From the NCBI GenBank assembly GCA_019894955.1, contig JAGXNQ010000003.1:1-48210 (forward strand): a stretch of DNA of 48,210 bases. The letters are read 5' to 3'. The notes under the pieces were generated by a model. The model was not told the DNA's origin and searched no databases. It saw only the letters and a list, made by a program, of their open reading frames with translations. This DNA is from Promethearchaeota archaeon (GTDB lineage: Archaea > Asgardarchaeota > Lokiarchaeia > Sigyniarchaeales > SOKP01). This document shows, one piece after another, positions 39,295 through 45,140 of this stretch (the stretch's first letter is position 1; each line of letters starts with the position of its first letter). The position numbers and the translations under genes were made by a program.

Positions 39295-40848
39295 TTAAAT
39301 CTTAAGCTCGTTTTCTACAAATACTGTAGCTACCATTTCAAGGTCTTCATTTGTGATAGAACGAGATAATGCTGTTTGTAAATCGGTGAGTAATTGTTTA
39401 CATAAATTGATGCTTAACGAACTTCCTTTTTGTTCAATTAATTTTTGCAACTCTAATGGATAATCAATTTTGCCAATTGCTTCGTCATCTTTAGATTTTT
39501 CAATAATGAAATTAGTATACTCTTTTGGCTTATCTGGTTTAAATTCCTTCTCTTTTGGTTTGATTTTGATTTTAATATCATCAGGAGTTAAATATTGAGA
39601 TATCTTTTCCTTATCTTCTTTTGTAAATAGAGTGAGATCTTCGATTTTTGATGTTTCTGAACTGATAATATTTTCTCGTTTGGGGGGTGGGGTGATTTGA
39701 GGTGTAATAGAATTTGATTTATTTCTTAATTGACTGGTAGGTAAACTTTTTACCATGGGCTTCTCAGAAAATTCGATTTTTCCTGGTACTTTAAACTTCC
39801 GCTTGCTTTCACGAATTTTCCTTAATTTATTTTGTTCTTCTATTTTGGATTGTATTTCTACTACTTTATTCTTAAATGTTTGAATATAGTCCAGATCTTG
39901 ATAATGACTTGAAATTTTAATCAATTCTTTATATTTTACTATTGATAAAACAAAATTTCCTTCAAGCTCTAATCTTTCTGCTTGATTCATCATTTCTGGG
40001 AAATCTTTAGGTAGAGTTTCTTTAAGATTAAGTGATTTAGATATAATCGAATTAATTCGTTGTTTCACCTCTTGATCAACTAATGATAATTCAAAAAAAT
40101 CATCCATATCTAACTCATTTTTAATTAATTTCAAGTCAGAATCTTCAACTAGATCTCGTTTATTACCAATAATTACCAATTTGGATAGCTTTCCTTCTTG
40201 CTTTTGCAGGGTTTTAAAATGATCTATCACTCTTATGTGGTAATTTGAAAGATCAAACAAGAGTATTATGAGATCTGATCCACTAATAAATTTGGACCAT
40301 AGAAGTGAGAAATTATCTTTAAGTTGAAAATCCCACATATCAAAATTTAGATTTTCAATACTATAGTTTGATGAAACAGCAAAATTCATTATTTCTTTAG
40401 TTTCTCCCTTTTTAAGAAGATAAAATAGTTCAGTTTTTCCTGCATTTGTTGGACCAATGATAACTAATTTAGAATGTAGTTCATGTTGTAGGGGTTTCAA
40501 GTATTCTACAAAATTTTCTTTTTGAGATGTAGATTCCAAAATCTCATTTGGTAACTGAAATAGTTCATCGAATTTCTCGATAGTTTTGAGTATTATTGGT
40601 TCCATCCTATTAAGTTGATCTACGAGATCAGTTACAAACATGAACAATACGTTCTTACTGGAACGGTGGAATATTTGATAATTAGTAACAGAACGCTGAA
40701 ATGTTTTTCCAGGCATTGGCAAATCTAAATGAGATTGTATGATTTTTGTTACATTTGTTAATTCCTCGTCCCCAAGACCCATTGCATAAGAATGATTAAA
40801 AATACAAGCATTCTTATGAAAAATATGAATTTGTCTTAACATGATCAT
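39295..40848 (-). CDS. Longin-like N-terminal domain + Arf-like small GTPase domain (degenerate switch II) + long C-terminal extension
   Basis: The N-terminus IHIFHKNACIFNHSY..NYQIFHRSSKNVLFMFVTDLVDQLNRMEPIILKTIEKFDELF follows the sigma-adaptin/longin pattern (cf. NFKIIYRRYAGLYFCICVD..AYLEAIHNFVEVLNEYF). GTPase motifs are the P-loop GPTNAGKT and NKxD GNKRDL. The Arf-type WDVGGQDKIRPLW reads WDFQLKDNFSLLW here. ATGs at 40848 and 40842; GTG at 40851. Confidence 0.75.
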   Translation of the reverse strand: MIMLRQIHIFHKNACIFNHSYAMGLGDEELTNVTKIIQSHLDLPMPGKTFQRSVTNYQIFHRSSKNVLFMFVTDLVDQLNRMEPIILKTIEKFDELFQLPNEILESTSQKENFVEYLKPLQHELHSKLVIIGPTNAGKTELFYLLKKGETKEIMNFAVSSNYSIENLNFDMWDFQLKDNFSLLWSKFISGSDLIILLFDLSNYHIRVIDHFKTLQKQEGKLSKLVIIGNKRDLVEDSDLKLIKNELDMDDFFELSLVDQEVKQRINSIISKSLNLKETLPKDFPEMMNQAERLELEGNFVLSIVKYKELIKISSHYQDLDYIQTFKNKVVEIQSKIEEQNKLRKIRESKRKFKVPGKIEFSEKPMVKSLPTSQLRNKSNSITPQITPPPKRENIISSETSKIEDLTLFTKEDKEKISQYLTPDDIKIKIKPKEKEFKPDKPKEYTNFIIEKSKDDEAIGKIDYPLELQKLIEQKGSSLSINLCKQLLTDLQTALSRSITNEDLEMVATVFVENELKI

Positions 40849-41070
40849 CACTTATATGTTAATCAAGGGATATCAATATTCTTTATAATCATATAAAAAA
40901 CTCTTATTAATATATGTTAATATCATATGAACCTAAAAGTTTTAGCATCAATTTAGGTGACTGCAGAAATCAAATATGAACTATTAATTAAATGAAATGA
41001 AAGATTTTTTTTACCTTGAAATGTTTATAGAATTAAATTCTTGTAACATTAAAATTTACTGATCAATTTA

Positions 41071-42006
41071 ATGCCTTTAACAGCACATCACTTAAGGAAC
41101 TTATTAAAAGAAACACAGTTAGATAAGGAAATTGATGAGCTCACTGAATTAATGGTCAAAAGAATAAACCAACTTTGTTTTGAAGATTGCCAGATTGATC
41201 GAATTGCTTGCACGCTCCAACCAAAATGTAGACAAAGATGGCTCTTAAAATTAAGGTTACTAAACAAATTATCATTAGAAGATCAACCTAAATTTTGCTA
41301 TAGTGTTCATAAGAATATTCTTTTTCGCGACAAAAACAACAAAACAGTTGTCTATAAGCCAACTGATGCCTATTTATACACGATTGATTTTTTAGATGTT
41401 TTTTTCCATGGGGATTATCGAAAATTAAATCTCTATTTCTCAAAAAAACAGTATAAAAATTGTATTAAAATATTTAAAGATCGAATCAATAATAGAGGCG
41501 ACCATTTTCAATATCTATTAACAAATAAAGAAAATTTTATGATATTCAAATTTGATGAAAAAATTCACGTAATGTTTCTTAATGAAAACTATGTATTATC
41601 TAATGCTAATAGAGATAATATTACAAATGTAGAACTACTAAAAGGAATATGTGAATTATTTGCTATGCTCCACTTTCCAGAATTCAAATTAAAATTAGAT
41701 ACTGATAATAGAATTGAAATTAAAAGCATAATTCCTGTAGATATTTTATTAAAAGTGATATCCAAACCACCCGAAACAAAAGATAACAAAATTGATGAGT
41801 ATTTCTGGAATATTTTTTCAACTGACCTTGATGCTTTAAGTCAACATTGTAAAGAAATCAAATTATATATGAATAAACAAAATGATTTAGTTATAAAAAT
41901 ATACCTTGATGTGAATTCTACACATCTAATAAGATATAGAGATTTGCGATTAATTTTTAATATAATTTATCGGATTTATAATGATTATTACATAATTTGG
42001 GCATAA
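41071..42006 (+). CDS. Hypothetical protein (311 aa), no recognisable family
   Basis: Long ORF with ordinary composition. It is divergent from the longin-GTPase gene and lies 26 nt upstream of the HEAT/coiled-coil gene, so they probably form an operon. Confidence 0.55.
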   Translation: MPLTAHHLRNLLKETQLDKEIDELTELMVKRINQLCFEDCQIDRIACTLQPKCRQRWLLKLRLLNKLSLEDQPKFCYSVHKNILFRDKNNKTVVYKPTDAYLYTIDFLDVFFHGDYRKLNLYFSKKQYKNCIKIFKDRINNRGDHFQYLLTNKENFMIFKFDEKIHVMFLNENYVLSNANRDNITNVELLKGICELFAMLHFPEFKLKLDTDNRIEIKSIIPVDILLKVISKPPETKDNKIDEYFWNIFSTDLDALSQHCKEIKLYMNKQNDLVIKIYLDVNSTHLIRYRDLRLIFNIIYRIYNDYYIIWA

Positions 42007-42032
42007 ATAATAAAAAGAAGAGATAGATCACA

Positions 42033-44328: not shown

Positions 44329-44392
44329 TTTTCTTTATAGAAAATCGTTAATTGGGTTTTTAGAACTTACTATATGTTATATGGACTATATA

Positions 44393-44986
44393 TTATCCTG
44401 TTATATGGACTAATTCTACTCCACGTACATCAAAATTTTTATCAATAAAACATAGAACAACATGACCCTCATGTACGTAAACGATGGGAACTGGATATGA
44501 TTCTGCATTATTGATGAAACTTCTCTTTACAATTAGTGGTTTAGTAACATTACAAACCATGCAAGGAATATTAACAACTTTGATTAAATCTCTTTCTTCA
44601 AAATTGTCTAATAATTCTTCAATCTCAATTTCAAATTTATTAAAAATACCAGGAGAGAAATTGTCATATGATAATATATAATCTACGGCATATTTTTTAT
44701 TGAATTCGACTGATACTTCCTCAATAATAGCTTCTAATAATTGGAATTGCATTTCAATATTCGAACCTGCGGAATAAATAATATTTCCCTTACGTATATG
44801 CACAATTTTTAGGTTACCTTTATTCATGTGAAAAAAAATATCACTCATTGGATTCTGTTTGCTTACGTTTAAATCTAAAATGAAACTTTTATATGATCCC
44901 TTAGGTTTGTATTCAAATAACGTAAATTCTTCATTACTGATATTAATGAATTCTAAGTTATTCAATATATTCTTAATATTTAGCAT
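44393..44986 (-). CDS. Hypothetical protein with longin/roadblock-like N-domain and small Cys/His-containing C-domain
   Basis: NLKIVHIRKGNIIYSAGSNIEMQFQLLEAIIEEVSVEFNKKY matches the strand-strand-helix pattern of longin/roadblock folds. The C-terminal part is VNIPCMVCNVTKPLIV..PIVYVHEGHVVLCFIDKNFDVRGVELV. ATG at 44986; TTG at 44995. Confidence 0.5.
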   Translation of the reverse strand: MLNIKNILNNLEFINISNEEFTLFEYKPKGSYKSFILDLNVSKQNPMSDIFFHMNKGNLKIVHIRKGNIIYSAGSNIEMQFQLLEAIIEEVSVEFNKKYAVDYILSYDNFSPGIFNKFEIEIEELLDNFEERDLIKVVNIPCMVCNVTKPLIVKRSFINNAESYPVPIVYVHEGHVVLCFIDKNFDVRGVELVHITG

Positions 44987-45140
44987 ATGAATCAATATTT
45001 TATGTCTAGGATAATATTGAGGGTCTTATGGTTATATAAAACGCTTAATCAAATATAAAGAACTTGAATATTTATATATGCATAAATTAGATAAATTAGA
45101 TGATGACCAACCGATAATTTAAAAAGGAGAAAGTTATAGA

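Follow-up and report, generated by a model that had tools for sequence, protein, structure and literature searches.

The 48,210 nucleotides analysed here, positions 1 to 48,210 of contig JAGXNQ010000003.1 from a Promethearchaeota archaeon (assembly GCA_019894955.1), are referred to as the window. They contain a compact cluster of five genes, named G1 to G5, around a protein in which a longin domain is fused to an Arf-like G domain. The products of the five genes may assemble into a single cytosolic hetero-oligomeric scaffold that is confined to Loki-type Asgard archaea and built around the atypical longin–Arf-like G protein G1. Synteny, distance correlations and domain assignments point in this direction, and a probability of roughly 0.45 is given to this reading. 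From the parts list of an earlier sequence-only reading, the fusion of a sigma-like longin to an Arf domain, the HEAT and coiled-coil protein and a second helical solenoid have been retained, but the second longin is only a possible one.

Arrangement and conservation of the five genes

All five open reading frames (ORFs) were found in the ORF list of the window with the coordinates, strands and spacing given by the sequence-only reading (Table 1). For G1, stop and strand hold, but the start has been moved. Every homologue in the family alignment opens with MLRQ, and translation therefore probably begins at the ATG at 40842 and not at 40848, leaving two residues fewer and a protein of 515 amino acids. 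One public gene call agrees with this start. The five are not chance ORFs, since each has hundreds of full-length homologues with 45-90% identity and very constant lengths. The closest relatives of the window proteins come from metagenome-assembled genomes (MAGs) labelled Promethearchaeota, Lokiarchaeota and Lokiarchaeia, with a few from Hod-, Hermod-, Thor- and Odinarchaeota, which places the organism among the Loki-type Asgard archaea. More than 270 full-length homologues of G1 were found, all of them in Loki-type Asgard MAGs.

G2 and G3 are separated by 26 nt. The stop codons of the convergent genes G3 and G4 lie 1 nt apart in the window (43278-43284), and a 4-nt overlap is present in many related genomes. 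As the adjoining stops leave no room for a terminator, the 3' ends of the two transcripts probably overlap. G1 and G2 diverge from a spacer of 219-228 nt, depending on the choice of start codon, which would serve as the promoter region.

When the G1 family was searched for in a set with a single genome for each GTDB species, 65 G1 loci were obtained (designated here by L numbers), of which the 41 with at least 4.8 kb of flanking sequence were informative. In 37 of the 41 (36 found by script and L065 by inspection), all five genes fit into 5.3 kb and keep their order and orientation. By tblastn of the window proteins, order and orientation of G2 to G5 are the same wherever the related contig reaches. 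The synteny across Asgard genomes on which the sequence-only reading had made its proposal depend is borne out for the Loki-type lineage. Median gaps are 84 nt between G5 and G4, 3 nt between the convergent G4 and G3, 31 nt between G3 and G2, and 203 nt between the divergent G2 and G1.

The value of this synteny as a proof of linkage is weakened by an M32 carboxypeptidase gene, which follows G1 in 60 of the 65 loci. Since M32 is an equally constant neighbour, adjacency alone is no proof of common function, and synteny overstates the linkage. The link among the five genes is partly rescued by two divergent genomes in which the cluster persists after loss of M32. One, Lokiarchaeota-labelled (L069; 35% identity to the window for G1 and 47% for G4), keeps G1 divergent from G2-G3 together with G4; the other (L070; G1 27%) keeps G1 divergent from G2-G3. 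The link is also helped by the correlation of evolutionary distance matrices, which averages r 0.85 among G1-G5, 0.70 between these proteins and controls, and 0.64 between the controls. Covariation of evolutionary rates is slightly stronger for the five proteins than for the controls, which is soft evidence. In favour of the cluster, too, the N-terminal domain of G3, G4 and G5 are conserved to the same degree as the adjacent M32 enzyme.

Domains of the encoded proteins

The N-terminal domain of G1 is related to the sigma subunits of clathrin adaptor complexes. Clat_adaptor_s of Pfam is found in 8 of the 22 members (best E 2.2e-5), the family profile finds AP-2 sigma in the PDB (E 0.002, residues 1-102 on 1-102), and hhalign pairs the two with a probability of 83% (E 8.7e-6). 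The sigma-adaptin or longin domain named by the sequence-only reading is thus confirmed at profile level, and G1 corresponds to the sigma/zeta-type small longin subunit of AP complexes and the COPI F-subcomplex at domain level only. MLRQIHIF at the start of G1 aligns with MIRFILIQ of AP-2 sigma; the N-terminus forms the beta1 strand of the longin, and an N-terminal amphipathic helix is absent. A role of the invariant Arg3 as an arginine finger in cis was considered and dropped because AP-2 sigma has the same MIR start. Inspection by eye of the family alignments of the longin region and of G5 did not reveal the GP/Arg-finger motif, a feature of the longins of GTPase-activating proteins (GAPs; PMC12290439). 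Weak Pfam matches in G1 were obtained to SRPRB (E 7e-4) and, in one family member, to SRP-alpha_N.

The Arf-like G domain is supported by Pfam Arf, which matches residues 118-272 of G1 (E 8.1e-12; 45.4 bits against a cutoff of 22.3). A GPxNxGKT P-loop and an NKRD motif are invariant in the family alignment of 23 members. The consensus of switch II in Arf1 is WDVGGQDKIRPLW, and the corresponding segment of G1 is WDFQLKDNFSLLW. The Arf-type W…D…W frame is retained there, and D-F-Q-L-K stands where Arf has DxxG-Q in all 23 aligned members, so that neither the DxxG glycine nor the catalytic Gln survives in any of them. No invariant switch-I Thr was found across the same alignment. As a whole, G1 does not carry the canonical Arf set of P-loop, switch-I Thr, DxxGQ and NKxD. 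Judged from these motifs, G1 probably binds nucleotide (GTP) but would not work as a conventional fast switch, and its role may be slow or structural instead. Because the glycine and the catalytic Gln are lost, the proposal of a GTPase-regulated module has become doubtful.

Behind the G domain, G1 continues with a TPR-like helical hairpin and a basic motif, KFxVPGxIxF, followed by about 95 residues of low-complexity linker that include a conserved LTLF motif; a conserved helical domain of 50 residues ends the protein. The region after the hairpin is rich in lysine and arginine. Assignment of the hairpin to the MIT or TPR families was rejected, as Pfam and PDB searches gave noise only.

The N-terminal half of G3 is a HEAT-repeat domain. 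Within the family, HEAT_2 matches 25 of 25 members (best E 1.9e-10), Cnd1 24 and HEAT 23, and the N-domain of the window protein alone scores 23.8 bits with HEAT against a cutoff of 23.5. Cohesin_HEAT also matches this domain. Adaptin_N matches 18 of the 25 members (best E 6.4e-7), and the window protein reaches 15.2 bits with it, under the cutoff of 37. The structures retrieved from the PDB include alphaRep, PP2A-A and INTS4, with weak matches to AP-4 and AP-2 beta (E about 0.08). By these profiles, the HEAT match is generic rather than adaptin-specific. The C-terminal half consists of 52% lysine and glutamate, with two prolines and one glycine in 200 residues; its length differs between genomes, and a unit of the form DKEIELKKK…E[LI]KKKK[LI]E occurs twice, at residues 238 and 306. 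HEAT repeats followed by a charged coiled coil, as described by the sequence-only reading, are therefore present in G3. A winged helix was not found in G3 of the Loki-type cluster. The longin and solenoid folds on which the sequence-only reading had staked its proposal were both recovered, as the sigma-like longin of G1 and the HEAT solenoid of G3.

G4 has 486 homologues, every one annotated as hypothetical. Its identity between genomes is 47-90%, and its mean distance of 0.45 is second lowest after that of the N-terminal domain of G3 (0.42). The AlphaFold2 model (predicted local distance difference test score, pLDDT, of 72) and the family alignment confirm the helical body and the acidic tail noted earlier. 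The body is a TPR-like solenoid in the model: Foldseek against the PDB returned generic TPR and solenoid structures only (E about 0.04, TM-score at most 0.34), and a sequence-profile search against the PDB gave nothing. For the N-terminal domain, sequence and predicted topology fit SpoVT/AbrB (beta-alpha-beta-beta), as the sequence-only reading had suspected, but the only profile match is a weak one, of MazE_antitoxin to 1 of 24 members (E 0.016).

G5 has a length of 197 residues in nearly all genomes. The second longin or roadblock domain attributed to it is a candidate. Seven of 26 members match Pfam Longin collinearly (41-111 to 4-77/84) with E values of 0.005-0.1 (best 0.0054), but these matches lie below the cutoff and the sequence-profile search against the PDB found none. 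With hhalign, probabilities are 15% against the G1 longin and 0.8% against AP-2 sigma. In the C-terminal domain, C142, C145, H172 and H175 are invariant, and this CxxC…HxxH arrangement is probably a zinc site. A mu-homology domain was not found in G5 (no match to Adap_comp_sub); the 60-residue CxxC…HxxH domain takes its place.

The cluster proteins are acidic in overall composition. None of the five contains a hydrophobic stretch resembling a transmembrane segment; the highest 19-residue Kyte-Doolittle mean is at most 1.53, compared with 3.06 in a neighbouring membrane protein. Pfam and composition revealed no transmembrane segment, N-terminal amphipathic helix or lipid-binding domain in G1-G5, which speaks against the membrane association proposed by the sequence-only reading.

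The G2 family and the wider neighbourhood

G2 has no sequence relative in Pfam, NCBIfam or the PDB, and a weak histone-fold match was insignificant (E 0.16). The AlphaFold2 model is confident (pLDDT 81; predicted template modelling score, pTM, 0.77) and consists of a helical N-domain and an alpha/beta body. Foldseek with this model gave a best PDB match of E 0.1 with TM-scores below 0.2, and nothing in BFVD. The model thus suggests a protein without a solved relative in the PDB and BFVD rather than a proven new fold. The sequence-only reading had called this 311-residue protein an orphan. This was correct with regard to recognised families, but G2 is no isolated orphan. A profile search of 1.84 billion representatives collected 95 proteins. 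Some of these are distant homologues over the full length and carry the labels Njordarchaeia, Helarchaeota, Odinarchaeota, 'Asgardarchaeia', Ranarchaeia and Sifarchaeia. The signature C36-x3-C40-x6-C47-x5-C53…C76, with flanking P, R, F and D, is kept in all Asgard classes with the family. The five cysteines may form a metal site, Zn or Fe-S, inside the helical domain.

The gene that comes 4-90 nt after the G2 homologue, on the same strand, in Njord-, Hel-, Odin- and 'Asgardarchaeia' loci encodes a protein of 1,028-1,313 residues. These giant proteins begin with a TrmB-type winged helix (Pfam TrmB in the Odin protein: E 1.7e-11, above the cutoff), continue with long apolipoprotein- or spectrin-like helical repeats and end in a globular domain. 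Giant proteins of this kind beside G2 homologues are apparently undescribed. They were considered as homologues of G3, but this was rejected, as no similarity was found by blastp or hidden Markov models. In L075 (Promethearchaeota), a G2-like gene is followed by a gene for a 453-residue HEAT and coiled-coil protein, which has the motif D.LRY..VLALKP in common with G3; there is no GTPase nearby. The partners of G2 in L069, L070 and L075 (357-453 residues) are all G3-like. Because the pairing recurs in the four other classes and in L075, G2 with a downstream long helical protein appears to be the older unit, and the five-gene arrangement would be an elaboration of the Loki lineage.

Beyond the cluster, M32 lies at +1.5 to +1.8 kb from the start of G1 in loci L004-L067. 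In the window, an amidase gene and two membrane-protein genes have been inserted between G1 and M32. M32 is a neighbour as conserved as G2, without an obvious functional link. It is often followed by the gene of a CDP-alcohol phosphatidyltransferase and by a second small-GTPase unit, which recurs with its 198-residue partner 4-7 kb from G1 in many related loci. The 338-residue GTPase of this unit has a C-terminal extension of about 165 residues, and its stop overlaps the start of the partner, for which only a weak DUF7013 match was obtained. A ferredoxin-domain protein gene often also follows in related loci. Of the converging membrane-protein genes, the nearer one is separated from G1 by 9 nt between stops, and about 11 loci, as well as the divergent L069 (29% identity), have homologues at this place. 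On the other side of the cluster, beyond G5, an RNA methyltransferase gene of the SpoU family is paired with a 71-residue ORF; the pair recurs in about 14 loci at variable distance, and SpoU alone in 32 loci. No cytoskeletal gene was found in the cluster neighbourhood. The window has a GC content of about 29%, and neither tRNAs nor Rfam families were found in it.

Table 1. Features of the cluster and its surroundings. Positions are those of the window, except for residue numbers and for entries preceded by a locus name.
Feature	Position	Strand	Description or basis
G1	39295-40848/40851, likely start 40842	(-)	515 aa, longin–Arf-like atypical G protein; ORF and family alignment
G1 sigma-adaptin-like longin domain (residues ~1-113)	40504..40842	(-)	Pfam, PDB profile search, hhalign
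G1 Arf-family G domain, degenerate switch regions	40033..40497	(-)	Pfam Arf
G1 C-terminal extension	39298..40029	(-)	Conservation pattern in family alignment, composition
G1/G2 divergent intergenic region	40843..41070	.	AT-rich, TATA-like boxes; length conserved, median 203 nt across loci
G2	41071-42006	(+)	311 aa, Asgard-wide uncharacterised family
G2 Cys signature (residues 36-76)	41176-41298	(+)	Alignment conservation
G3	42033-43280	(+)	HEAT domain and K/E-rich coiled coil
G3 HEAT-repeat domain (residues 1-215)	42033..42677	(+)	Pfam HEAT family profiles, PDB profile search
G3 K/E-rich coiled coil	42678..43280	(+)	Composition, internal repeats, alignment
G4	43282-44328	(-)	Putative AbrB-like N-domain, TPR-like solenoid, acidic tail
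G4 putative AbrB-like beta N-domain	Residues 13-61	(-)	E13-20, H30-36, E44-50, E56-61; pLDDT 62-75
G4 K-rich disordered linker	Residues 62-99	(-)	AlphaFold2 model, alignment
G4 predicted 12-helix TPR-like solenoid	Residues 100-324	(-)	AlphaFold2 model
G4 C-terminal peptide PI[ST]ENKPxSSxDF, then acidic tail	Beyond residue 324	(-)	Family alignment
G5	44393-44986/44995	(-)	197 aa, possibly longin-like N-domain and CxxC…HxxH C-domain
G5 N-domain, possibly longin-like	Residues ~8-135	(-)	Sub-threshold Pfam Longin
G5 C-domain	Residues 136-197	(-)	CxxC…HxxH in family alignment
Second small-GTPase unit	31637-33249	(-)	338-aa Ras/Arf/Gtr1-like protein and 198-aa protein
CDP-alcohol phosphatidyltransferase (membrane-lipid head-group enzyme)	33385-33972	(-)	Between M32 and second GTPase; position kept in 39/65 loci
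M32 carboxypeptidase	34081-35580	(-)	After G1, same strand, in 60/65 loci
90-aa membrane protein	37537-37809	(+)	Converges on G1 with the 483-aa membrane protein
483-aa polytopic membrane protein	37834-39285	(+)	~12-14 predicted transmembrane segments, no Pfam family
SpoU-family RNA methyltransferase	45141-46204		3' end overlapped by opposite-strand 71-aa ORF
Giant proteins after G2-family genes	L068 10896-14582; L072 8903-12844; L073 9045-12131; L074 8992-12906		

Possible functions and relation to known systems

In SRX–SRbeta, MglB–MglA and Mon1–Ccz1–Ypt7, the G domain is held by a longin/roadblock dimer. In a scaffold composed of the five proteins, the cis longin of G1, probably with the longin-like domain of G5 as its partner, would form such a platform against the G domain, which would bind GTP but switch slowly or play a structural part instead of acting as a fast GTPase. 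Docking would take place on the G3 HEAT domain and on the G4 TPR solenoid, each encoded beside one longin gene, and the coiled coil of G3 would dimerise and extend the assembly. G2 would be an obligate partner of G3, the two forming the ancestral pair. The DNA-binding-type domains, namely the AbrB-like domain of G4 and the TrmB winged helix-turn-helix of the partners of G2 homologues, possibly point to a target other than a membrane. The combination of small G protein and longin or roadblock domain that marks such platforms is realised in G1 as a fusion, and the cluster adds a second candidate longin, G5. The arrangement resembles the receptor of the signal recognition particle, SRalpha(SRX)–SRbeta, where a longin-fold domain also sits on an Arf-like G domain, in G1 possibly in cis. 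However, the cluster has no NG domain or transmembrane anchor, the partners differ, and the match to sigma-adaptin is much stronger than that to SRX. Small G proteins are likewise combined with longin/roadblock and scaffold proteins in MglA–MglB, Rag–Ragulator, FLCN–FNIP, GATOR1, C9orf72–SMCR8 and Mon1–Ccz1. Unlike these platforms, the cluster has no DENN domain and no recognised GP/Arg-finger motif, and its accessory subunits differ; the order of longin and GTPase in G1 is the reverse of that in Rag.

Several observations weigh against a single scaffold. Two loci have an insertion of 2-3 kb between the convergent units, the G5-G4 unit is displaced in two others, and L069 has no G5 beside its cluster. 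G2 homologues of other Asgard classes have no adjacent GTPase. The longin assignment of G5 is sub-threshold, and the distance correlations were obtained from non-independent pairs and three controls, which were neighbouring proteins. The conserved block also exceeds the five genes, as it includes M32, the CDP-alcohol phosphatidyltransferase and the second GTPase, and part of it may be plain colinearity. The five genes could merely be long-standing neighbours forming two or three independent units (G1; G2-G3; G5-G4) without a common function. The three separate transcription directions, the insertions between the G3 and G4 units, the displacement of G5-G4 in some genomes, the occurrence of a G2-G3-like pair alone elsewhere and the conservation of M32, the phosphatidyltransferase and SpoU nearby would all fit. 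This account is nevertheless unlikely in view of G1, G2 and G3 (with G4 in L069) remaining together in two remote genomes without M32, of a distance correlation above that of the controls, and of parts that complement each other (longin, G domain, solenoids). An equally unlikely alternative is a proto-adaptor or coat module, in which the longins of G1 and G5 and the solenoids of G3 and G4 would form a core like that of AP or the COPI F-subcomplex, recruited to a membrane by the Arf-like domain for cargo sorting or bending. The likeness to AP1-5, the COPI F-subcomplex and Arf1 is real in that an AP sigma subunit is the nearest PDB and Pfam relative of the G1 longin, the solenoids include HEAT-type ones, the G domain belongs to the Arf family and the parts count agrees (two longins, two solenoids, one Arf), with each longin gene beside a solenoid gene. 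The Adaptin_N and AP beta matches of G3 and the polytopic membrane protein abutting G1 in some loci add to it, and the possible existence of such a complex is a speculation made by Eme et al. 2023 in their supplement (PMC10307638). The cluster differs, on the other hand, in the fusion of its longin to the G domain and in solenoids that match generic HEAT and TPR structures equally well or better. These measure 215 residues in G3 and 225 in G4, a third of the size in AP/COPI, where two Adaptin_N trunks of about 600 residues carry appendages. Mu-homology domain, appendages, amphipathic helix, transmembrane segment and lipid-binding domain are lacking, switch II is degenerate and the G5 longin is unproven. 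The cysteine-rich G2, which has no AP/COPI counterpart, the probable zinc module of G5, the AbrB-like domain of G4 and the coiled coil of G3 are additions. As all defining features except the sigma-like domain are absent, membership in AP/COPI fails. It is quite unlikely, too, that the cluster is a minimal pre-eukaryotic adaptor-like complex and a present-day relative of the ancestral form from which eukaryotic cargo adaptors arose (AP/COPI/TSET logic). In it, each longin-like subunit would pair with a short alpha-solenoid, and G2 and the coiled coil of G3 would have been added in this lineage.

The DNA-binding-type domains could also be read as signs of a nucleoid or transcription scaffold. 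Contact with DNA would then be made by basic linkers and the AbrB-like domain of G4, the complex would organise or regulate chromatin, and the G protein would serve as nucleotide sensor. Besides the SpoVT/AbrB-like sequence and topology of G4, the winged helix that opens the 1,000-1,300-residue protein after the G2 homologue in four other Asgard classes, the matches of the G3 HEAT domain to Cnd1 and Cohesin_HEAT, and the K/R-rich linker of G4 and post-hairpin region of G1 would suit this role. It is hardly probable in view of a weak AbrB assignment, generic HEAT matches, an insignificant histone-fold match of G2, the lack of a winged helix in G3 of the Loki-type cluster, and proteins that are acidic overall. 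In MglA systems, SgmX is a TPR effector, and AglZ and FrzS are coiled-coil effectors. The parts list (G protein, longin/roadblock, TPR protein, coiled-coil protein) would thus also fit a module for polarity or cytoskeleton positioning like MglA/MglB, in which G protein and longin/roadblock recruit TPR and coiled-coil effectors to a pole or protrusion. Loki-type cells have long actin-filled protrusions (PMC9834061). The G domain of G1 is, however, of the Arf type and not of the MglA type, and the neighbourhood lacks cytoskeletal genes, which makes such a module very unlikely.

Some elements of the cluster have been described before. Fusions of Clat_adaptor_s or longin domains to Arf are reported in the supplement of Eme et al. 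2023 (PMC10307638), in the available part of which no G1-family sequences were found. The same architecture has also been reported in the preprint of Liu et al., by Tran 2024 and by Zhu 2025. The same preprint describes a conserved Asgard operon of GTPase and regulators (LAMTOR1-like/Rab/DENN), and according to Tran et al. 2024, GTPase genes of MK-D1 generally lie outside operons with longin/roadblock genes. The five-gene neighbourhood is absent from these papers, and G2-G5 are unannotated. Literature searches gave no description of this neighbourhood, or of the G2, G4 and G5 families. The architecture of G1 and the presence of adaptor-type domains in Asgard archaea are therefore already known, and the five-gene cluster is apparently undescribed.

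Isolated 'eukaryotic signature' domains abound in Asgard genomes, and it is rarely clear which of the proteins cooperate. The cluster provides a rare longin–Arf-like protein with fixed candidate partners across dozens of species and thus a defined set of five proteins. G2, in addition, defines an Asgard-wide cysteine-rich family, with a confident model that has no match among solved structures. If the five proteins assemble, they would show an archaeal machine of G protein, longin and solenoids in a cell without endomembranes, and may inform models for the origin of adaptors and coats.

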